Both the position numbers and the translations under genes were made by a program. Of a DNA stretch of 64,000 bases, positions 48,895-59,610 are shown piece by piece; positions within the stretch are counted from its first letter, which is position 1, and every line of letters starts with the position of its first letter. The DNA is from Alphaproteobacteria bacterium (GTDB lineage: Bacteria > Pseudomonadota > Alphaproteobacteria > UBA9219). The notes beneath the pieces were generated by a model. It was not told the origin of the DNA. It saw only the letters and a program-made list of their open reading frames with translations, and made no database searches. The stretch covers positions 192,062 through 256,061 of the forward strand of contig JAMFSS010000009.1 of the NCBI GenBank assembly GCA_026225415.1, given 5' to 3'.

Positions 48895-49855
48895 TTAACG
48901 CGCCAACTTTCTTACAAACCCAACCCATTCCACCACCCGTTGTTCCCACTGATAATGCGCATGGAAATAATCGATTTGTTTGCGCAACTGCGTTTCCGCA
49001 GCCTCAGATTTTTCATCCAGCACCGCCAGAATTTCACCGGCAAAAGCATCATAATCCACCGGCATATTAAACCTTGTCGCGTCATCGGCATCTTCAACCG
49101 GCACATGCCGCGCAAACCCATGTGCCGTTTCCGGCAAGGCCGCGCGGTTGGTCGCCACAACCGACAAACCCGATGCCAATGATTCAATCATCGCAATACA
49201 CGATGTTTCCGGCCATGGATTGGGCGCGATCATTATCGAAGCCGCCTTCATGCGTCGCGCCAGTTCCCCCTGCCCCACCATGCCGACATGTGTGATGTTC
49301 GGTTGTGCGCACAACCAGTCGATATATTTTTTATCCTGCGCAACATTGCGTGAAGGATCGAGATTGCAAAACATCTCCACCGAAAAATCGGTACGTACCG
49401 CGCGGATTTTTTCCAGCACAGGCGGCACATGAAACGCGCCCCGCGCAAAGGAACCGACAAATTGCAAAACAGGTGGTTGGATTTTCTGCGGCATAATAGC
49501 CTGCCCCGTCGCAAAAGACCCCGCCACCAAAGGATTCATCCCATTGCGAATAACCGCCTGCCGCCATTTTGGACGCGCCGCGTTTTGGCACACGCGTTGT
49601 TGCCATTCACTGACAAACACCACCCCGTCAAACGCCGACAGCGCGGGCGTAAGAGGCGATGCAAAAACGCTTTCATGCATCCATGCAATCAGCGGCGCGG
49701 TCGGTACGGCGATTAAAAAACACGCATTCCACGCCTGTTTTCACCATTTCCCGCGCCAGAAAGCACACAGCCGACGTGGTGCCGCCCAGCGGTTCACCGC
49801 TATCGGGGCGGGCGGCATCGTAATGATACACAAAATCGATAAAAGCGAGGCGCAT
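48895..49855 (-). pseudogene. GT4-family glycosyltransferase split by a frameshift (N-terminal fragment 49673-49855, C-terminal fragment 48895-49680)
   Basis: The N-terminal fragment (MRLAFIDFVYHYDAARPDSGEPLGGTTSA...) is a GT-B N-terminus. The C-terminal fragment carries ...DGVVFVSEWQQ... and a C-terminal GT-B domain. The two fragments overlap by 8 nt in different frames. Confidence 0.65.
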
Positions 49856-49896: not shown

Positions 49897-50712
49897 ATGA
49901 CCGATAACAACATCACGCGGCGCAAATTTATCCAGGCAAGCCTTGTGGCATCCTTTATGTCGAGCAGCGCGGGCGCATGGGCTTCAACGGCGACACCGCG
50001 CCCGGCACCCGTCCATAAACCACGTGCGCCGCGCTTGCTGATGCTTGACCCGGGACATGGCGGCCGCGACCCCGGTGCGATTGGCCGCATCGGCACGTAT
50101 GAAAAAGACGTCACATTGGACATAGCGCGACGCATGGCCGATGCCCTGTCGGGCATACCGGGCATCACCGCGAAATTGACCCGCGACGACGATACCTTTA
50201 TTCCGCTCGAAGAACGCGTGCGCATAGGCCGCGAAGCGCATGCCGATTTGTTTTTATCGGTGCATGCCGACAGTGCGCCCAACATGGCCGCGCGTGGATT
50301 ATCGGTTTATACTTTATCGTCCAAGGCATCGGATGATTTTTCCAAACATCTGGCCGACAAGGAAAACGAAGCCGACATGATGGGCGGCATGGATTTGCCG
50401 CCGGCGGACAAAGAAGTCACCTCCATCCTTATGGATCTGGCGGCGCGGCAAACGCACAACACCGCGCAACATGCCCGCGCATCGTTTGTCGAAGCTGTCG
50501 GGCAGAAATGGCATTTGTTGGAAAGCCCCATGCGCGCCGCCAATTTTGTGGTGCTGCGCGCACCCGATGTGCCTTCGATGCTGGTGGAAACGGGTTTTCT
50601 GTCAAACCCGCAAGACGAACAATTACTGCGCCAGCCCCAACAACGCAACAAAATCGCCCAAGTGATGGCCAAAGACCTCGCCACGATTTTGAACAGCAGT
50701 TTGTTCAGCTAA
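49897..50712 (+). CDS. amiC: N-acetylmuramoyl-L-alanine amidase (amidase_3) with a Tat signal, no AMIN domain
   Basis: Twin-arginine MTDNNITRRKFIQASL... and catalytic motifs LDPGHGGRDPGA and ...SVHAD... Confidence 0.8.
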   Translation: MTDNNITRRKFIQASLVASFMSSSAGAWASTATPRPAPVHKPRAPRLLMLDPGHGGRDPGAIGRIGTYEKDVTLDIARRMADALSGIPGITAKLTRDDDTFIPLEERVRIGREAHADLFLSVHADSAPNMAARGLSVYTLSSKASDDFSKHLADKENEADMMGGMDLPPADKEVTSILMDLAARQTHNTAQHARASFVEAVGQKWHLLESPMRAANFVVLRAPDVPSMLVETGFLSNPQDEQLLRQPQQRNKIAQVMAKDLATILNSSLFS

Positions 50713-51001: not shown

Positions 51002-51595
51002 TCAGGCGAAACTCAAACCGCGCGCAGCAGTCCGTTCGAGGAATACAGCTTCTTCCGGCGTGGCTTCGCGTCCCAGATAGGGGTTGCGGTGCGGGAAACG
51101 CCCGAAACGTTGGACAATTTCATAATTCCGTTCGGCGAAAGTCAGCCAATCGGAATCCTTGGTGCGTTCGCGGATATAAAACAGCGCCAGCCTTTGGTCG
51201 CCCATATTTTCCGAATTAAGGAACGGCAGATAGAAAAGCAGCTTATACTGTTTATCAATCCGGTCATCGAAATGTTTGATAATCGCGTCGCGGGCCAGTT
51301 CCAGCGCGACATCATCGGTTTCATAGGCGCGCGAGGTGCCACGGAACATGCGGCGCGGAAATTGATCCAGCAACAGCAGCAAAGCCAGAGAACCTTCGGG
51401 CGTGGTTTCCCACACTTTCAATCCACCGGCGACAGCCTGTTCATAAACGGGTTGGAAACGGGTACGGATCTCGCCATCCAAAGCGACATCGTCCGAAAAC
51501 CATCGGTCACGGCCAACTTCGTAAAACCAGAAGTTCAGAATGTCTTCGGAGCTGGCCATCTGTTCCTTACCCATAAGCAGCGTTCTAACCATCAT
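51002..51595 (-). CDS. DUF924 family protein
   Basis: ILNFWFYEVGRDRWF...LLLLDQFPRRMFRG...GRFPHRN matches the DUF924 pattern. The start may be the internal Met (51574 or 51559). Confidence 0.75.
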   Translation of the reverse strand: MMVRTLLMGKEQMASSEDILNFWFYEVGRDRWFSDDVALDGEIRTRFQPVYEQAVAGGLKVWETTPEGSLALLLLLDQFPRRMFRGTSRAYETDDVALELARDAIIKHFDDRIDKQYKLLFYLPFLNSENMGDQRLALFYIRERTKDSDWLTFAERNYEIVQRFGRFPHRNPYLGREATPEEAVFLERTAARGLSFA

Positions 51596-51824
51596 AGGGC
51601 ACGAAGGTTACAAATGAATTACCAACAATCAAGAAAAACACGATTCTTTTAACGAAAATCCGGCTTTCTTGCCGCCAAAACCGGTTTTTTACAAGAGAAC
51701 ACGATAGATAAAATACCCGATAAATTGCATCTTCGTTCTTATGCGGAAATGGTGGAAGTCGCATCGAACCTGTCGTATCTTGATTCCCTCTCTCTGATTC
51801 ATGCCTCGCGCTGCTCCGGTTTTC

Positions 51825-54800
51825 ATGCGTAAAAATCTTTTCCTCGCCGCGTCTTTGGCGCTTACGGTTGGTGTCGCCGCGCAGGGGGGTGCCGTGTCCG
51901 CATGGGCTGCCGATGGGGCGACGAATGGCGCGTCCATCACTGTGCGCGCCGCAACGCATGAAGGCTATGACCGCGTGGTGTTCGACTGGCCGCGGTCGGT
52001 CGGATACAAATTGACCCGCGACGGCAATCTGGCGACGCTGACTTTCGATGCCGATGCCGATGTGAAATTTTCGCGCGATGTTCAGGCCTATCTGACCCGC
52101 GCGCGTGGTTTTGCGGCACACAGCGATAACGGGCATGTGGTCGTTTCTTTTACCGTCAATCCCACCGCAACGTTAAAAAGCTTTACCAGCGATAAATCGG
52201 TTGTGATCGATATTAATGGCAATCCCGCGCCGCAAGTTTCTGCCCCCCCGACACAGGCTGCGGCACCTGCCGCCACGCCTGACGTCACACCACCAGCGGC
52301 GGAAGCGCCCAAGAAAACAGAAACAAAAACCGATGCCGCAACGGCTGGGCCGCAAGCTTTAACACCGCCTTCGCCGATGCCCGTGGTGGCGGCCTCTGTG
52401 CCTGCGCCCACACCCGCCCCCAAAAAAATCGCGCCGCCAAAAAAATCCGAACTTCCCCCCGCCCCGCCAACACCCGCCGCTGTTGCGCCGCCTGCACCAA
52501 AACCCGCCGCACCTGTGGCGGCAACAACCACGCCTGCAATCGTCACACCACCACCTATTGCAGCAGCCACGACACCCCCGCCCAAAAAACTGGCGGCATC
52601 CAGCTTGCCCTTGGACAGCGCGCCCACGCTTGTCGCCTCGCTCGACCCGCATGTGGCGACACGCACCGCCATTTTCCAACGCGCCGATGTTGGCTATATC
52701 ATCTTCGACAAAAAACTGACGCTATCCGCCGCCGCTCTCGAAAACGGGATACCGGCGCAAATTGATTTGCAAGTTTTGGATATGCCGAAAAATTCGGGCT
52801 ATCGTTTCGCCGTACCGCCCAACAGCGATATGCAGGCGACGCTTAACGGCACGATGTGGAAAATTTTCCTGAGCAAGAAAAGCGGCAGCACGCCGGTAAC
52901 GACAGGTCTGGTGGCACAGCCGGATTTCGCCTTGGGCGCGCGCATTTTATTGCCCTTGCCCGATGCGCCCGACCCCATCCATTTTACCGATCCTGTCGTG
53001 GGCGATGACCTTATCCTGATCCCTTTGGCGCAAAGCGAAGCCTTTAACGCGCAACGCAATTTGTCGGATATCACCATTTTACCGGCGGCACAGGGTTTGG
53101 TGATCAAACCGCAAACCGATAAAATTATCGTCCGCGCCGTTTCCGACGGTATCGAAATCACCGCCGAAGGCGGGTTGCTTCTGTCGCGCGCGATGGATAC
53201 CGGCGCGTCGCAACAATCGACCACCAAGGCCAAAGCGGCGGCGGCGGGCAAATCGATGTTTGATTTTGCGACATGGGGCGGCAAGGTCACGGAGAATTTT
53301 TCGCAAACCCGCCAGCGTTTACAACAAACCATTGTCGATGTGCCGGATGCCGAACGCAACCGGGCGCGTCTGGAATTGGCGCGGTTTTATTTCGCCAGCG
53401 GTAATGGCGAAGAAGCTTTGGGGCTGTTGAATTATCTGGCGCAGCAAGTGCCGGATCTCCGCGCCCATGCCGATTTTATCGGCCTTGTCGGCGCGTCGGA
53501 AATTTTGTCTTACCGTTCCGATGAAGGGTTACGCGATTTGTCCTTACCCATACTTGCCGACCAACCGGAAACGGAATTATGGCAAGCAGTCGGTCTGGCG
53601 CAATTGCGCGAATGGAAGGAAGCCGAAGAAAAATTCGCCGTCCGCGAAACTATCCTGACCGGCTATCCCGAACCGTTTTTCTCGCGCTTTTTCGTGTTGG
53701 CGATCGAATCCGCGGTCGCGACCGACAAGGTGCATGAAGCCGCCGACTGGCTGGATTTCGTTTCCAACGCGCCGCATGACACGGAAATTGATCCGGCCTT
53801 GTCCTATCTGCGTGGCGCGTTGCATGCCAAAGCGGGACGCGCCGAAGCGGCAGAGTCGGCATGGAAAGAAACCATGGCTTCCAACGACCGTCTGTACAAA
53901 GTACGCGCCGAACTGGCGTTGATCGATCTGGGCGTTTCGACCGGCTCGTTGACCTCGGCACAGGCCGCCGACAGGCTGGAAGCGTTGCGTTTCGGTTGGC
54001 GCGGCGATGATCTGGAAGTCGATATTCTGCATCGTCTGGGGCAATTTTATATTCAGGCTAAAAATGTCAAAGCCGGCCTCAGCGCGATGTCGCAGGCGAT
54101 TACCCTCTATCCCGCCAGCCCGATGGCCCCGCAAATCCACACCGAAATGGAATCCGTTTTCCATGAAGTTTTTCTGGGCGCGCTCGGCAAAAAATTATCG
54201 CCGCTCGACAGCCTGACACTTTATCAACAATATCGCGATCTGATGCCCAGCGGTAAAGACGGCGACGCGGTCATGAATAATCTGGCCGAACGTTTGATCG
54301 CGATTGATCTGCTGGATCAGGCGGCGACCTTGTTGCAAGAACTCGCCAAAAACCGTTTGCAAGGCCCGGACAAAGATCATGTCGCCTTGCGTCTGGCGGC
54401 CATACGCCTGCTCAATCATCAACCCGATGAAGCTTTGTCGGCGCTTGATCTGACCACCACATCCTTGCCCGAAGCCTCACAAAACGAACGTGTGTTGTTG
54501 CGCGCCCGCGCTTTGTCCGAATTGCATAAAGACAGCGAAGCAGCGGCTTTGTTAAAAGACAATCCGACGCAGGGCGCCAAAATGTTGCGCGCCGATATCG
54601 CCATGCATGGCCAGCAATGGGCCGACGCCGCCAAAGCTTTGATGGAACTGGCAGGCCCGCCACCCGCCAGTGGCCGCGTGTTGAAACCCGAACAGGCCGA
54701 TTGGATTGTCAATGCCGCCATAGCCTATGCGTTGGACGGCAATCAACCCGGCCTTGACAGGTTGGCGATCGATTACAGCGCGGCCATGGCCACAACGCCG

Positions 54801-54971
54801 CAAAACGACACGTTCCGCCTTTTGACCGAACCCGAAAAAACCGGCCAGATGCGCGATCTGTCGGCGGCGCAATCGCAAATTTCACAAGTCGATATGTTCC
54901 AGGGCTTCTTGAATAATTACCGGAATGTGCCTGATGCCAATGCACCCGCCACGCCGCCCACCAAGCCATAG
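51825..54971 (+). CDS. large periplasmic protein: signal peptide, AMIN-like domain, long Pro/Ala-rich linker, central domain, C-terminal TPR-like repeats
   Basis: ITVRAATHEGYDRVVFDWPRSVGYKLTRDGNLATLTF resembles an AMIN domain. The linker is P/A/T-rich for about 150 aa. Helical TPR-like repeats begin after about residue 560. Stop overlaps the start of the next gene. Confidence 0.6.
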   Translation: MRKNLFLAASLALTVGVAAQGGAVSAWAADGATNGASITVRAATHEGYDRVVFDWPRSVGYKLTRDGNLATLTFDADADVKFSRDVQAYLTRARGFAAHSDNGHVVVSFTVNPTATLKSFTSDKSVVIDINGNPAPQVSAPPTQAAAPAATPDVTPPAAEAPKKTETKTDAATAGPQALTPPSPMPVVAASVPAPTPAPKKIAPPKKSELPPAPPTPAAVAPPAPKPAAPVAATTTPAIVTPPPIAAATTPPPKKLAASSLPLDSAPTLVASLDPHVATRTAIFQRADVGYIIFDKKLTLSAAALENGIPAQIDLQVLDMPKNSGYRFAVPPNSDMQATLNGTMWKIFLSKKSGSTPVTTGLVAQPDFALGARILLPLPDAPDPIHFTDPVVGDDLILIPLAQSEAFNAQRNLSDITILPAAQGLVIKPQTDKIIVRAVSDGIEITAEGGLLLSRAMDTGASQQSTTKAKAAAAGKSMFDFATWGGKVTENFSQTRQRLQQTIVDVPDAERNRARLELARFYFASGNGEEALGLLNYLAQQVPDLRAHADFIGLVGASEILSYRSDEGLRDLSLPILADQPETELWQAVGLAQLREWKEAEEKFAVRETILTGYPEPFFSRFFVLAIESAVATDKVHEAADWLDFVSNAPHDTEIDPALSYLRGALHAKAGRAEAAESAWKETMASNDRLYKVRAELALIDLGVSTGSLTSAQAADRLEALRFGWRGDDLEVDILHRLGQFYIQAKNVKAGLSAMSQAITLYPASPMAPQIHTEMESVFHEVFLGALGKKLSPLDSLTLYQQYRDLMPSGKDGDAVMNNLAERLIAIDLLDQAATLLQELAKNRLQGPDKDHVALRLAAIRLLNHQPDEALSALDLTTTSLPEASQNERVLLRARALSELHKDSEAAALLKDNPTQGAKMLRADIAMHGQQWADAAKALMELAGPPPASGRVLKPEQADWIVNAAIAYALDGNQPGLDRLAIDYSAAMATTPQNDTFRLLTEPEKTGQMRDLSAAQSQISQVDMFQGFLNNYRNVPDANAPATPPTKP

Positions 54972-57900
54972 ATGATGAACAAGCAACGCCTTCTTTACAG
55001 CCTGGTTCTGGTCACAATTTTATCGGGGCATCAGGCATGCGCACAGACCAAAGACAACGCGTTGCATGTCGTTAAAACCGATATCAATGCCGAGTCGGAA
55101 AATGCCGAACTTTGCGTGGAATTCGATAAGCCACTCGCGCCCGCATCACCGGCGCATCTGGCTTCGGCTTTGCATCTGGAAAGCGACGGCAAGGCTGTTG
55201 CCATTCCGTCGATTGCCGCAGCCGGAACATCCCTGTGCGTTTTTCCGCTGGCGCGCGGCACACAATATCATCTGACGCTTTCCGGTTTGCGCGGATCAGA
55301 TGATGAAAGGCTGGACGAAAGTTACAAAACAACATTCACCATTCCCGACCACACCGCGACCCTCAGTTTTACCGGTGCCAATGGCGGCGTGAACGGGTTT
55401 GATTTTTACGACACGCCTTTGACGCTCCGCGCCGTTAATGTGCCGCATGTCAAAATCGACATTTACCGCGTCAGCGATGCGCCAAGTCTGGCGCGCGCCT
55501 GGATCGACCGCGCCCAAACCGCATTGGCGCCGACCGAAAGCGCCTATCTGGCTCATGACAAAGGGCAAGCCGTCTGGCATGGCGATGTGCAGTTTGACGT
55601 TACCGCCAATACAACCAGCACCCAGCAAATCGCGTTGCGCGACAAAGCGCCCGATCTTGCGCCCGGCCTATATCTCATTGTCGCGGATGCCGAAAATCAC
55701 GACGCCTCCAAACCTGCCAGCAAAGGTCTGGCGCCCTTGGCCGCCGCGTGGTTTACGCGTGCCGATTTTTCCATGCAGGCGCTCCGCGACGATAAAAATC
55801 TTCATGTCTTTGTCACGCGCAACGACAACGCGGCCAAAGACGATATCATTGTAAATGCCATCAACAGCAAAGGCGAACCAATCGCCACCGGTAAAATCAC
55901 CGGTGACGCCAATACCGACGTGATCACCTTACCTGCCGCGGTGGATTCGGGCGATGCCGTCAGCCTGATCGGCACCGATTCCAAAGGCGGCATCGGTTTC
56001 GCCGACAGCGATAAAATGCCTTTGCCCAAAACACCGGAAGCGTTGGGCACCATCCATGCCGCGTCGGATTTTGTCGCCCCGTTTGACAATATCGAAACCG
56101 GCCTTTCTCTGGCCGCCGCCGATAGCGGCCCCAAAGCCAATGAAGCCAGCCTGTTGCGCCTGACGCAAAAAGAAAGTGATTACGCGACGATAGCGGTGCC
56201 GCCGCTTGCGCCGACAAACATACGCCTGTCTTTTGCCGCGCCCGCCACCCAAGGGTTATGGGCGATGCGTTGGCAAAAAAATGACGGCACGATGCTGGCC
56301 ACCAAAGACATCCATATTTCCGACAATGCCGATCTGCCGCATTTGGAAGTTACCTCGCATCGCGATGCGTTGGGCAGCGACGGCGTGTGGCCGGTGACCA
56401 TCCGTTCCGTGACACAGGCGGGGCAGGCAGCGCCTTTGATCGGCGGTCATGTGTCGCTTGTCTGGCAGAAAATGGATACGGCCTCGTTGGGGTGGAAAGA
56501 TTATGTTTTCGGCACTGTGTCCGATGTCGCCGAAACGCCGGTGCCAGTTGGCGATTTCATCACCGATTTGCAGGGAATGGCGCAGCTTCATCTGGCATTG
56601 CCCGCGCACCCCACCGATCATGGTTTGTATCAGGCCAAACTGCGCGTAACGGCGGATGCCGATACCGGCGTTGGCTGCGCCGCGCCTGTCATTCTTCCGC
56701 TGCGCCCCGACGCCACAATTATCGGCATCAAGGCATTGACGACCGCAGCGCGTTTCCCGCAAAACGGCATTGCCCGTTTCGCCCTGATCGGCATTGATTC
56801 CGACGACAAGCCGCATGATGTCGGCAATCTGTCTTATCAGCTGTATGAAGAAGGCCGCAGCTTCAGCTGGTTTCAGGATGAAGGAAAATGGAATTATAAA
56901 CAGGCGGCGCAATTGCGCCCCATCGGCGGCGGCGCGTTGGCGATTAAAGCCGATGGCAGCAGCATTTTGGAATGGCCGGTTACCGCAGGCAATTACCGTT
57001 TGGAAATTCTTGACCCGAACGGCAAGACCCTTGCGCAGACTTCGTTCAGCGCGGGATGGGATTCAACCGGCGCAAGTGCGGTGGCGGCGTTGCCGTTGGA
57101 TATTGCATTGCCCAAAATTTTATTGCCCAATCACGAAGCGGCCGCGCGCAGTGTTTTACCCGAAGCGTCGATGGTCACATTTGTCGTGGGCGACGGGCAT
57201 ATCCGCAAAACTATTCATGAATACCGCGCCAAGGGCGACAATAATTTCACGTTTGTTCCGGCATCGGACTGGCAGGAAAATATTACCGTCAGCCTGGCCG
57301 CCCAACCGATCAGCAACCCCGCCTTGCAACGCGCGGCCACGGGCGAAGCTTTGTTGACGCAAAACAGGCAGGCGATTGACAACACAGCGGCGACATTATC
57401 GTTGATTGCCAGTGACGATCCCGCCGCGCTGGTGCTGCATAAAGGCGGGTCGGGGCTTTTATCATTTGCCCTTGTCAATAACGGCACCGACACGGAAACC
57501 TATCATTACAATTTCGGGTTATCGGCGGGGTTGAAAGCCGAGAGCGAAGACAAGGGCAGCCTGACAATTGCCGCCGGCCAAAGCAAACCGCTATCCCTTG
57601 CGTTATCCGCCAACCAGACCGGCGTGAAGGAAATCAGGCTCGATATCACCGGCTCGCGCGCATCGCATATCAGCCGCAGCTGGCCGCTCAGCGTCGCGTT
57701 GAACAACAGCGAATTAAAAAGCGTTTCGACAAAAAATGTGGAAGGCAAACAAATCCTGTTTTCTGCGCCCGCCAAACAGGATGCCGCCGAAACTTTGATG
57801 TTTGTATCGCGCCGCCCGATGGATGGGTTGGCGGAAATTTTGTCTTTTGCGGTTCATGCGCAGCCCTTCACCACCACCCGTCTGGCATCCAATCTTGAAG

Positions 57901-59102
57901 CGTTACGTTTGTGGCGCGGCGTGATTGCGGAAACGGGTTTGATGCATGATTTTGCGGTCGATGCGAAACGCCGCGCCTTGTTTATCCAGATGTTACGCCA
58001 CCAAAACACCGATGGCGGTTTTGCCCCCTATCGCGGCACCGACAGCACATTAACCGATACGGCAGCCGCATTAACTGCATTGGGCAAAGAAACATCCCCG
58101 CAAACCGATGCCGCCAAAAAACTGGCCATCACCTATATCCAGCAAAGGCTGGCCAACACCTGGGTCGATGAAACGGAACGCGCGCCGCGGGCATACGCCT
58201 ATGCCGCGTTGGCGGCGGCCGATGCCGTCGATATAGCGTCTTTGCATTATTTTTCGGACACCAGCGCGACATTGCCCCTGCCCGCAATAGCGGAAGCGCA
58301 TATCGCGGCGGCGTTCAAGCAAGTGCGCGACCCGAATGCGGCGGCGTTCTGGATCAAGAAAATGCTCGATGAAAATCCGGGGCAAAAGAATATCGAATTG
58401 CTGAATGCGCTGGCCGACACCGATGCGTTATCTTCCGATGATGTGCATGCGGCCATGCTTGCGATGAAAAATGATTTGCAGAAAAATATCGATGTCCCGT
58501 CGCATGATGCCGCATTACTATTGCGGGCAATTGCCGCCGATAACATTGACGCTGGCAAGGCACATTGGACGGCGGGCAATGAAAGCCACGATATAAACAA
58601 TGTCGGCGTGATACGGGGCGCAGGCGAAACGCTGGCCAGTTACCGCAATGGCGATGCGACGTCTTTGTCGATGACACTTATCGGCGAAGAAACCAAAACG
58701 CTGGCCGCGCCCACGAACATCACGCGCCATATTTATCGCCTGAATGGTGTTGAAATTGCGCCGCCTGCCCGTCTTGTGCGCGGCGAAAATTATATTGTCG
58801 AACTTAAGGGAACCTATCCCGTGACCGATATCCAAATGTTGGTGCAGGATACCGGCATGCGCCCCATGGGCTGCCCGTTATCGGCGCGCACCAACATTTT
58901 GTCTTTCATGCCGTGGCTTGACACGCATGGGTTGACCGACAGCGTCACCTGCGAATTTACGCATCACGAAATGAATATCTTGCTGCCCGCGTCGGACACC
59001 AAGGATGCCGGTTTTTCAACCGTGTATTTCGCGCATAGCGATGAAACAGGTTTGGGCAATTTGCCGCCGCCGCGTTTACGGGCTTTGAAATCAGTTAATT
59101 GA
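54972..59102 (+). CDS. alpha-2-macroglobulin-family protein (thioester-less, MagD-like), 1376 aa
   Basis: Signal peptide, many beta-rich MG-like segments, and a C-terminal alpha/alpha-toroid TED-like region (MLRHQNTDGGFAPYRG...). No CxEQ thioester seen. Confidence 0.5.
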   Translation: MMNKQRLLYSLVLVTILSGHQACAQTKDNALHVVKTDINAESENAELCVEFDKPLAPASPAHLASALHLESDGKAVAIPSIAAAGTSLCVFPLARGTQYHLTLSGLRGSDDERLDESYKTTFTIPDHTATLSFTGANGGVNGFDFYDTPLTLRAVNVPHVKIDIYRVSDAPSLARAWIDRAQTALAPTESAYLAHDKGQAVWHGDVQFDVTANTTSTQQIALRDKAPDLAPGLYLIVADAENHDASKPASKGLAPLAAAWFTRADFSMQALRDDKNLHVFVTRNDNAAKDDIIVNAINSKGEPIATGKITGDANTDVITLPAAVDSGDAVSLIGTDSKGGIGFADSDKMPLPKTPEALGTIHAASDFVAPFDNIETGLSLAAADSGPKANEASLLRLTQKESDYATIAVPPLAPTNIRLSFAAPATQGLWAMRWQKNDGTMLATKDIHISDNADLPHLEVTSHRDALGSDGVWPVTIRSVTQAGQAAPLIGGHVSLVWQKMDTASLGWKDYVFGTVSDVAETPVPVGDFITDLQGMAQLHLALPAHPTDHGLYQAKLRVTADADTGVGCAAPVILPLRPDATIIGIKALTTAARFPQNGIARFALIGIDSDDKPHDVGNLSYQLYEEGRSFSWFQDEGKWNYKQAAQLRPIGGGALAIKADGSSILEWPVTAGNYRLEILDPNGKTLAQTSFSAGWDSTGASAVAALPLDIALPKILLPNHEAAARSVLPEASMVTFVVGDGHIRKTIHEYRAKGDNNFTFVPASDWQENITVSLAAQPISNPALQRAATGEALLTQNRQAIDNTAATLSLIASDDPAALVLHKGGSGLLSFALVNNGTDTETYHYNFGLSAGLKAESEDKGSLTIAAGQSKPLSLALSANQTGVKEIRLDITGSRASHISRSWPLSVALNNSELKSVSTKNVEGKQILFSAPAKQDAAETLMFVSRRPMDGLAEILSFAVHAQPFTTTRLASNLEALRLWRGVIAETGLMHDFAVDAKRRALFIQMLRHQNTDGGFAPYRGTDSTLTDTAAALTALGKETSPQTDAAKKLAITYIQQRLANTWVDETERAPRAYAYAALAAADAVDIASLHYFSDTSATLPLPAIAEAHIAAAFKQVRDPNAAAFWIKKMLDENPGQKNIELLNALADTDALSSDDVHAAMLAMKNDLQKNIDVPSHDAALLLRAIAADNIDAGKAHWTAGNESHDINNVGVIRGAGETLASYRNGDATSLSMTLIGEETKTLAAPTNITRHIYRLNGVEIAPPARLVRGENYIVELKGTYPVTDIQMLVQDTGMRPMGCPLSARTNILSFMPWLDTHGLTDSVTCEFTHHEMNILLPASDTKDAGFSTVYFAHSDETGLGNLPPPRLRALKSVN

Positions 59103-59610
59103 GGATTTCGATTGCTGTCGCTTCCCTACCTTTGTTGGCGGTCTGCACCGACATCCTGACCTTCTGGCCGGAATCAAGGCTTTCGGCACCGGCACGCAAA
59201 ACAATCGTGCGATGCACGAACACATCGCGCCCGCCATCATCGGGCGTGACGAAACCAAAACCTTTATCGGGTTTGAACCATTTAACCACGCCGGTCAGTT
59301 CTTCTTCGGGGCCGGTCGGCGATGCACGATGCGTGTTGGGCGATGAGGGAATTTCGCCCATCCCCAACACTTGAACGATGCTGAGAACCTGCCGGCCTTT
59401 GGCGCCGTCGCTGATCGTCACCAATAATTTGGTGCCTTCCGCCACATCGCGCAATCCTGCGCGGCTGACAACGGAAGAATGGATAAAGGCGTCGGCAGAG
59501 CCATCGGCGGGGGCGACGAAACCGAAACCTTTTGTCAGATTGAACCATTTCACAATGGCTTCGGTCTGAAAACCCTGATCGGGCGCGGGGGACATATCAA
59601 AGGAAGACAA
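59095..59610 (-). CDS. tandem cold-shock-domain protein (two CSDs)
   Basis: Two copies of VKWFNxxKGFGFV...DVFVH. Confidence 0.85.
   Translation of the reverse strand: MSSFDMSPAPDQGFQTEAIVKWFNLTKGFGFVAPADGSADAFIHSSVVSRAGLRDVAEGTKLLVTISDGAKGRQVLSIVQVLGMGEIPSSPNTHRASPTGPEEELTGVVKWFKPDKGFGFVTPDDGGRDVFVHRTIVLRAGAESLDSGQKVRMSVQTANKGREATAIEILN

Follow-up and report, generated by a model that had tools for sequence, protein, structure and literature searches.

A MotK/FssB-like flagellar scaffold homolog and a thioester-less alpha-2-macroglobulin homolog encoded side by side in an uncultured alphaproteobacterial lineage

Introduction

A 2026 review describes MotK, MotC, PflA, and FlcB as tetratricopeptide repeat (TPR) partners of the MotE/FlgY/FlbB E-ring and calls MotK and CC_2058 PflA-like (PMC13023049). 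MotK, from the Fla2 system of Cereibacter sphaeroides, is a periplasmic protein in which an N-terminal AMIN-like domain (eight strands plus a short helix) is accompanied by proline-rich stretches and a TPR remainder; it is encoded together with motE and stator genes, binds MotE and MotB2, and is essential for rotation (Mot-), and its AMIN-like domain has been interpreted as a stator anchor (PMC10954123). FssB (CC_2058) of Caulobacter crescentus has a Sec signal and TPRs, and its phenotype is a paralyzed flagellum (PMC7885107). Rhodospirillales lie outside the coverage of both papers (PMC10954123, PMC7885107). Bacterial alpha-2-macroglobulins (A2Ms) form a separate group of periplasmic proteins, of which the known members are paired with peptidoglycan (PG)-related partners and one, MagD, traps protease without a thioester (PMC5764988). 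Here, we describe two adjacent open reading frames, ORF1 and ORF2, in a 64,000-nucleotide stretch of an alphaproteobacterial genome (assembly GCA_026225415.1, contig JAMFSS010000009.1, positions 192,062 to 256,061), hereafter referred to as the window; ORF1 encodes a homolog of the MotK/FssB kind and ORF2 a soluble A2M homolog. The reading that we favor, and to which we give somewhat better than even chances, is that the two genes form a lineage-specific operon, in which a relocated MotK/FssB-like scaffold gene and the gene of a degenerate A2M specify functionally separate periplasmic proteins.

Results

ORF1 relatives lie in flagellar gene clusters

A genome scan for relatives of ORF1 yielded at least 411 genomic matches, of which the best 80, in 79 loci, were examined; the ORFs neighboring them were clustered, and the clusters were annotated by Pfam. 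These loci include Nitrospirillum, Azospirillum, Skermanella, Rhodocista, Thalassobaculum, Curvivirga, and many metagenome-assembled genomes (MAGs). Outside the subclade to which the window belongs, the ORF1 gene sits in a flagellar cluster, with the order flgH-flgA-flgG-flgF (divergent), fliL-fliM-DUF6468-MgtE_N(motE)-cheY-cheZ-MotB_plug-motB-ORF1, and then fliP, fliO, flgB/C, fliE, fliQ, fliR, and flhB. The group fliL-fliM-DUF6468-MgtE_N(motE)-(cheY-cheZ-MotB_plug-motB)-ORF1 was found in loci L019, L023, L035-39, L060-83, and L109; in L072, for example, the start of ORF1 is overlapped by the motB stop. A relative with 58% identity is the final gene of fliL-fliM-DUF6468-motE, with flgD, fliK, flgJ, and flgI close by. 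On a neighbor-joining tree of the ORF1 family, flagellar context is present on every deep branch, and the window protein is nested inside. Identity among relatives is 50-79% for ORF1 and no more than 53% for ORF2, i.e., ORF1 is much better conserved. An earlier reading of the window from its sequence alone (the sequence-only reading) had cast ORF1 as a septal or cell-wall factor; the survey shows instead a flagellar-cluster gene family across Rhodospirillales, one that fits the MotK/FssB/PflA class.

The domain architecture of ORF1 was derived from an AlphaFold2 (AF2) model with a predicted local distance difference test (pLDDT) score of 81.3. A signal peptide is followed by an AMIN-like beta-sandwich, a Pro/Ala-rich linker, central beta domains, and a TPR-type alpha-solenoid (Table 1), which bears out the AMIN-like domain, Pro-rich spacer, and TPR repeats proposed earlier. 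The AMIN-like model PF24837 scores 19.5 bits on the window protein, under the cut-off of 27, and is matched by 24 of 34 family members (best E 1.9e-6). The TPR matches of the window protein, both to Pfam and to NCBIfam, are sub-threshold only, and TPR matches to Pfam also occur among the other members of the family. Since hhalign aligns the N-terminal domain with residues 262-352 of the same protein at a probability of 57% (E 1e-4), the first central beta domain may be a second, divergent AMIN-like domain. Single-sequence searches of the PDB with ORF1 and with ORF2 gave no match, and profiles were required. The top PDB match of the ORF1 model in Foldseek is 9hmf_K, a flagellar periplasmic scaffold of C. 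jejuni (E 4.4e-8, 879 columns). By analogy of architecture and gene context, ORF1 appears to be an enlarged, Rhodospirillales-type addition to the recently described MotK/FssB class.

Two further observations concern these flagellar loci. In Rhodospirillales flagellar clusters, a protein of ~230-270 aa that has the MotB_plug domain only and no OmpA domain is encoded just upstream of full MotB (plug and OmpA) and the ORF1 homolog (e.g., L072:8503-9926, L079:8387-9924, and many further loci). The contig CAYMGM010000005.1 (L031 and L057) carries two paralogs of the ORF1 family, one after cheY-cheZ and the other without flagellar context.

ORF2 is an A2M homolog that has lost the thioester and the structured bait-region domain

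In ORF2, Pfam detects bMG6 (2e-20) and A2M_bMG2 (1.4e-6), and its BRD (A2M_BRD), A2M (PF00207), and TED models have no match. In hhalign, a 22-sequence profile of the ORF2 family (A1) aligns near full length with a profile of canonical thioester A2Ms (A2), at a probability of 100% (E 1.7e-84, 1335 columns), and the family profile also matches Salmonella A2M (4u48) and E. coli YfhM at the sequence level. An AF2 model covering residues 177-1376 (pLDDT 76.8; predicted template-modeling score 0.69) consists of a chain of beta (macroglobulin, MG) domains, an alpha/alpha toroid, and a C-terminal beta domain; its best PDB matches in Foldseek are E. coli ECAM (5a42, 2.3e-48) and 4u48 (7.5e-47), followed by CD109, A2ML1, TEP1, and C5. 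The best-conserved stretches fall in bMG6 (residues 601-700) and in the TED-like domain (residues 1051-1150), suggesting that these surfaces are still in use. The TED-like domain (A1 profile positions 996-1057, ~57950-58150) also matches the C-terminal repeat of squalene-hopene cyclase (E ~2e-9), because of the QxxDGGF motif of alpha/alpha toroids.

The site of the thioester is still recognizable but degenerate: where canonical A2Ms have YPYGCSEQ, ORF2 aligns AQPFTTTRL, with the Cys replaced by Thr and the Gln by Leu. Across the family, the consensus at this site is PFTTxEL, with EPYSSSE, EPFTVSEI, or YAFTTHE as variants in other members. The motif CxEQ is absent anywhere in ORF2 and in all 25 of the full-length family members; it is likewise absent from all 77 of the best-scoring full-length matches (>=1200 aa) listed in an exhaustive search of 1.84 billion representatives, in which the first thioester-bearing protein appeared only at about E 6e-28. 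At 50% identity, the family falls into roughly 75-100 clusters of public sequences. A second loss affects the bait region, where ~160 residues are gone. They correspond to residues ~963-1122 of the canonical A2M P0026, that is, the C-terminal A2M_BRD, the bait, and the N-terminal PF00207 domain, and what is left at the deletion site is a short, hypervariable, low-confidence linker of ~25 residues, the structured bait-region domain being gone. A sister subgroup of ~1500 aa (L019, L093-95) has kept the PF00207 domain and lost the thioester. Both the A2M-like nature of ORF2 and its lack of CxEQ, as proposed from the sequence alone, thus withstood the profile, structure, and full-protein searches.

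ORF2 is related to Type I rather than Type II A2Ms. In hhalign, the family profile matches E. coli YfhM (Type I) with a probability of 98.8% (E 6.5e-17, 1247 columns), against 58.9% (E 9e-5, 433 columns) for E. coli YfaS (Type II), and hmmsearch of the two E. coli proteins with the ORF2 family matched YfhM only; on these grounds, we ruled out ORF2 as a Type II (YfaS/MagD) A2M. Because the family aligns with YfhM and only weakly with YfaS, the loss of its thioester looks independent of the MagD/YfaS lineage, judging by these alignments. Signal peptides with an AxA site followed by Q, of the signal peptidase I (SPase I) type, are found family-wide in the ORF2 homologs, whereas YfhM has a LAGC lipobox. 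As the sequence-only reading had stated, the usual genetic partners of bacterial A2Ms are missing: there is no pbpC beside the A2M-like gene in the window or in more than 30 related loci (E. coli has yfhM-pbpC), and none of the mag/yfa partners DUF1175, DUF2138, DUF2300, and DUF2135 of the E. coli yfa locus is among the window neighbors.

The two genes are neighbors in one lineage

ORF1 and ORF2 share one reading frame with a single TAG between them. The junction reads CCA TAG ATG ATG AAC, with the stop codon at 54969-54971 and an ATG from 54972; the proposed overlap of the ORF1 stop with the ORF2 start does not exist, as the codons abut (54971/54972) with zero overlap. No Shine-Dalgarno sequence is visible at the junction. 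Across relatives, the gaps between the two genes are 0, 0, 2, 7, 20, 23, 24, 29, 50, 67, and 236 nt, in various frames, and abutting stop and start codons (TAG/ATG or TAA/ATG) occur in two lineages. We considered a single product made by read-through or fusion and excluded it, since ORF2 has its own signal peptide and the gaps in relatives place the genes in other frames; the locus therefore holds two genes. Given the many homologs of both proteins, neither ORF is open merely by chance. The junction gaps in relatives, mostly 0-67 nt, suggest co-transcription.

The pairing is narrowly distributed. An A2M-like gene lies downstream of ORF1 in 13 of the 79 loci, directly adjacent in 11, and all 13 belong to one terminal clade; in L019 and L020, an opposite-strand FAA-hydrolase gene separates the two. 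In the other 66 loci, all cultured genera included, the ~1.5 kb after ORF1 contain no A2M-like gene, although a few of these contigs end too early to tell. Among the informative loci of the terminal clade, ~15 have the A2M-like gene on the same strand as ORF1 and ~7 do not. Within the same clade, the two genes may be ~30 kb (L017/L003) or ~200 kb (L109/L106) apart, and in three MAGs (locus tags P4M13, ABTQ34, and SFW62) they are on different contigs. The sequence-only reading had asked for a gene-neighborhood survey of the pair, and the outcome is mixed: the genes are neighbors in close relatives, and the pair is not conserved beyond one terminal clade.

The A2M-like family has surroundings of its own. 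Its most constant neighbor, more constant than ORF1, is a cold-shock-domain (CSD) gene, convergent with it in nearly all loci of the family and often overlapping or abutting it (L001, L084-89, L094-96, L106, and L107). In L106 and L107, the order is clpS-queF-clpA-YjgF-FAAhyd(-)-A2M-CSD(-)-rpoN, and stand-alone A2M-like genes follow mutS (L096), dnaJ (L098), or transketolase (L003). The A2M-like family is thus older than the pairing and usually stands alone. Its tree mirrors that of ORF1, and the directly adjacent group is monophyletic; L003, which is nested in this group, is a secondary separation of the two genes. An intermediate state, ORF1-FAAhyd(-)-A2M-CSD(-), is seen in L019, L020, and L092-94, and in the L019 type it is preceded by the flagellar operon. 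Taken together, the best reading is that the adjacency of ORF1 and the A2M-like gene belongs to one uncultured alphaproteobacterial lineage only and is not an obligate module.

The simplest history that accommodates these states is an operon capture in four steps. The end of a fliL-motE-ORF1 operon would have arrived beside an ancestral FAA-hydrolase(-)/A2M/CSD(-) block, giving the L019 state; loss of the hydrolase gene, together with the divergent promoter region, would have followed; the A2M gene would then have been captured into the ORF1 transcript and become dependent on it, with gaps of mostly 0-67 nt and of 236 nt in one lineage; and ORF1 would have been cut off from the other flagellar genes, so that it now stands after Amidase_3 and DUF924 in a purM-purN housekeeping block.

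A few observations were made on the A2M-like genes of other genomes. In L108 (8229-13915), the gene of a distant thioester-less member (1304 aa) shares 4 nt with the stop of the preceding gene, which encodes an unrelated classical TPR protein of 591 aa; this is a second, independent TPR-A2M coupling. In L098, a similar TPR protein is encoded two genes before the A2M-like gene. In the genome with the transketolase context, a DotD (type IVB secretion) gene lies near the A2M-like gene (L003:1-205), and several related MAGs carry the label Bdellovibrionales, where NCBI places Micavibrio; DotD and these labels give hints of a host- or prey-associated lifestyle of the clade.

Layout of the locus and upstream elements

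The features of the locus are listed in Table 1. The gene order in the window is IMPDH (-), GT1 glycosyltransferase (-), Amidase_3 (+), DUF924 (-), ORF1, ORF2, CSD (-), an ORF of unknown function, and an aminotransferase gene, and the amidase and GT1 genes are part of a purM-purN housekeeping synteny block. The amidase had been described as AMIN-less and next to the pair; an AMIN-less Amidase_3 is indeed nearby, and it is not a direct neighbor, as DUF924 (-) intervenes. Upstream of the amidase, the GT1 gene (48895-49855, -) is split, with residues 99-366 and 1-52 of the L001 ortholog matching different frames. The intact ortholog in L001 has 371 aa, ~46 residues of which are missing from the window copy, and the latter is probably a frameshifted pseudogene or an assembly error.

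Alignment of the upstream regions identified one conserved candidate promoter element before ORF1 (Table 1). A sigma-28 promoter candidate (CCCGATAA) ~108 nt before ORF1 was rejected: it is missing from all relatives and is therefore a chance match. Regular-expression searches of the upstream regions for sigma-54 sites and CtrA boxes found nothing consistent. The intergenic region of DUF924 and ORF1 contains a direct repeat, GTTAC-N7-TTAC (51607-51622), 12-27 nt ahead of the start codon of DUF924, that is kept in at least eight relatives; it looks like a putative binding site for an OmpR/CtrA-type response regulator.

Table 1. Coordinates of the two ORFs, their domains and motifs, and neighboring features in the window
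Feature	Position	Strand	Description and evidence
CCTGTCGTATCTTG element	51769-51782	+	Candidate promoter -10 region; conserved ~45-70 nt before ORF1 in the subclade (upstream-region alignment)
ORF1	51825-54971 (alternative ATG at 51801)	+	1048 aa (1056 aa from 51801); MotK/FssB-like periplasmic flagellar stator-scaffold homolog
ORF1 signal peptide	51825-51908	+	MRKNLFLAASLALTVGVAAQGGAVSAWA, followed by ADG; by eye from the sequence; residues 1-34 have low pLDDT
ORF1 AMIN-like beta-sandwich	51930-52217	+	Residues 36-131; nine strands and one short helix, pLDDT >90 (AF2); Pfam PF24837
ORF1 Pro/Ala-rich disordered linker	52242-52580	+	Residues ~140-252; sequence; pLDDT <50
ORF1 central beta domains	52626-53165	+	Residues 268-447; AF2; invariant family motifs TDPVVGDD and PAAQGLVIKP
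ORF1 TPR-type alpha-solenoid	53265-54923	+	Residues 481-1033; AF2; Foldseek
ORF1/ORF2 junction	54969-54977	+	TAGATGATG; TAG, ATG, ATG; ORF1 stop directly before ORF2 start
ORF2	54972-59102	+	1376 aa; A2M homolog, soluble and periplasmic, lacking the thioester and the bait-region domain
ORF2 signal peptide	54972-55046	+	A-x-A SPase I site followed by Q, no lipobox; N-termini of all family members
ORF2 bMG6 domain	56724-57059	+	Residues 585-696; Pfam 2e-20; among the two most conserved parts
ORF2 bait-region deletion site	57324-57416	+	Residues ~785-815; ~160 residues gone vs canonical A2M; hhalign, Pfam map of P0026, pLDDT dip, low conservation
ORF2 TED-like alpha/alpha-toroid	57828-58553	+	Residues ~953-1194; AF2 helices, hhalign, squalene-cyclase repeat matches
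ORF2 degenerate thioester site	57858-57884	+	AQPFTTTRL (hhalign)
Amidase_3 gene	49897-50712	+	271 aa; AmiC-type catalytic domain alone, no AMIN; Pfam 1.5e-44; syntenic neighbor in the subclade
DUF924 gene	51002-51595	-	Between the amidase gene and ORF1
Double CSD gene	59095-59610	-	Convergent with ORF2; 8-nt overlap with the ORF2 3' end (59095-59102)

Discussion

In the operon of functionally separate proteins that we favor, ORF1 would be exported by Sec and its AMIN-like domain would anchor on PG, while the Pro-rich spacer of ~110 residues and the beta domains would position the TPR solenoid of ~550 residues; the solenoid would bind the E-ring protein MotE and the periplasmic part of MotB, leading to stator recruitment or activation. 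ORF2 would act as a soluble Type I-derived A2M that has kept the MG chain and the conserved TED-like toroid. Having lost the thioester Cys and Gln together with ~160 bait-region residues, it can no longer trap proteases covalently, and it would bind a protease or another ligand non-covalently through its TED-like and MG6 surfaces.

The narrow distribution of the pairing bears on the idea that the A2M-like protein is a true partner of the MotK-like scaffold, bound by its TPR solenoid and forming or protecting a periplasmic structure round the motor, which we consider unlikely. The A2M-like gene is absent beside ORF1 in 66 of 79 loci, its family predates the pairing and has housekeeping contexts, several genomes of the same clade have the two genes separated by 30-200 kb or split between contigs, an opposite-strand gene intervenes in the L019-type state, and no link between macroglobulins and the flagellar motor was found in the literature searched. 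Against these stand the same-strand adjacency in ~15 of 22 informative loci of the terminal clade, mostly with gaps of 0-67 nt and with abutment in two lineages, the congruence of the two gene trees, and the retention of the A2M neighbor by ORF1 despite the loss of every flagellar neighbor. In addition, TPR scaffolds serve as platforms for protein binding, a structural rather than an inhibitory role would fit the missing thioester and bait, and the A2M member of L108 is start/stop-overlapped with a different TPR protein. That ORF2 was recruited as a stoichiometric partner of the MotK-like scaffold, as a new periplasmic flagellar-motor component or a protective cage, seems to us quite unlikely; if true, ORF2 would be the first member of the A2M family known to serve structurally in a bacterial flagellum.

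The sequence-only reading had suggested a module for envelope protection or cell-wall work, in which the AMIN protein would target the A2M-like protein, and perhaps the AMIN-less amidase, to PG, in the manner of the ECAM-PBP1c or Mag complex. The architecture and the pairing on which it drew are real, the AMIN-like fold is a PG-binding fold, known bacterial A2Ms have PG-related partners (PMC5764988), and the amidase gene keeps its synteny across the subclade and is the immediate upstream gene, on the same strand, in L007, L011, and L034. The septal role and the conserved module found no support in the comparison, and we regard this explanation as very unlikely: the ORF1 family is flagellar by context in almost all lineages outside the terminal clade and in some inside it, the AMIN-like domain of MotK has been read as a stator anchor (PMC10954123), the amidase association is confined to the subclade, and the amidase and GT1 genes sit in the purM-purN block, with an opposite-strand gene before ORF1 in the window. 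There is also a small chance that ORF2 is a non-covalent protease trap of the MagD kind, with the residual loop at residues ~785-815 as bait and ORF1 irrelevant to its work. MagD itself works without a thioester (PMC5764988), the loop is hypervariable with low pLDDT, and the overall A2M fold is kept; however, the ~160 residues that are gone include structured parts of the BRD and of the following MG domain, the family is nearer to YfhM than to YfaS, and the window neighbors include no mag partners.

Several points weigh against the preferred reading of a relocated scaffold gene and a functionally separate, degenerate A2M. ORF1 is likened to MotK and FssB by published architecture and by context, and the match of its model to 9hmf_K lends weak support because the TM-score is low (~0.2) and generic TPR proteins rank close behind. 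No ORF in the window matches the flagellar clusters, the neighbors of ORF1 here being GT1, Amidase_3, DUF924, the A2M-like gene, and CSD, and a generic scan for promoters and terminators found no excess of sites over shuffled sequence. The hypervariable loop at the ORF2 deletion site might still serve as bait. Finally, ORF1 kept its A2M neighbor while losing all flagellar neighbors, and the junction was tightened in two lineages, which could reflect selection for co-expression and hence a real functional link.

On the preferred reading of two functionally separate proteins, the locus would extend the MotK/FssB class of PG-anchored TPR stator scaffolds to Rhodospirillales and related uncultured lineages. 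The ORF1 family, with ~1000-1300 aa and a position as the highly conserved last gene of a fliL-motE(-motB) operon, offers a candidate for cryo-electron tomography and genetics of the alphaproteobacterial E-ring and stator scaffolds. The ORF2 family would represent a third kind of bacterial A2M, one that is Type I-derived and soluble, appears to have lost its thioester independently, lacks the bait in most members, and keeps a TED-like domain; as such, it calls into question the view of bacterial A2Ms as always being protease traps. The locus also illustrates how an operon may form by loss of a gene between two neighbors, and that tight gene coupling alone is no proof of common function.

Compared with the described stator scaffolds, ORF1 resembles MotK and FssB in its Sec signal, its N-terminal AMIN-like domain (8-9 strands plus one short helix), its Pro-rich stretches, and the TPRs that make up the rest of the protein, and its family shares with theirs the position at the end of a fliL/motE/stator gene group. 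It differs in length (1048 aa vs 652 aa for MotK), in its extra central beta domains, in coming from a Rhodospirillales-type lineage, and, in the window, in lying outside the flagellar cluster. PflA of Campylobacter/Helicobacter and MotC of Sinorhizobium are, like ORF1, periplasmic scaffolds of beta domains and TPRs, and theirs contact the MotE/FlgY ring and the stators (PMC13023049); the structural match is weak (TM ~0.2 for 9hmf_K), there is no sequence similarity, and MotC has no AMIN domain. ORF2 shares with the Type I A2Ms (E. coli ECAM/YfhM and Salmonella SaA2M) full-length homology, the same fold, a conserved N-terminal Cys pair, and bMG6, but has no CxEQ and no bait-region domain, is ~280-360 residues shorter, carries an SPase I signal in place of a lipoprotein signal, and is not accompanied by pbpC. 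With the Type II A2Ms, P. aeruginosa MagD and E. coli YfaS of the six-gene mag/yfa operon (PMC5764988), it shares a periplasmic location and the lack of a thioester; it differs from them in its weak similarity to YfaS, the deletion of its structured bait-region domain, and a neighborhood free of DUF1175, DUF2138, DUF2300, and DUF2135 partners.

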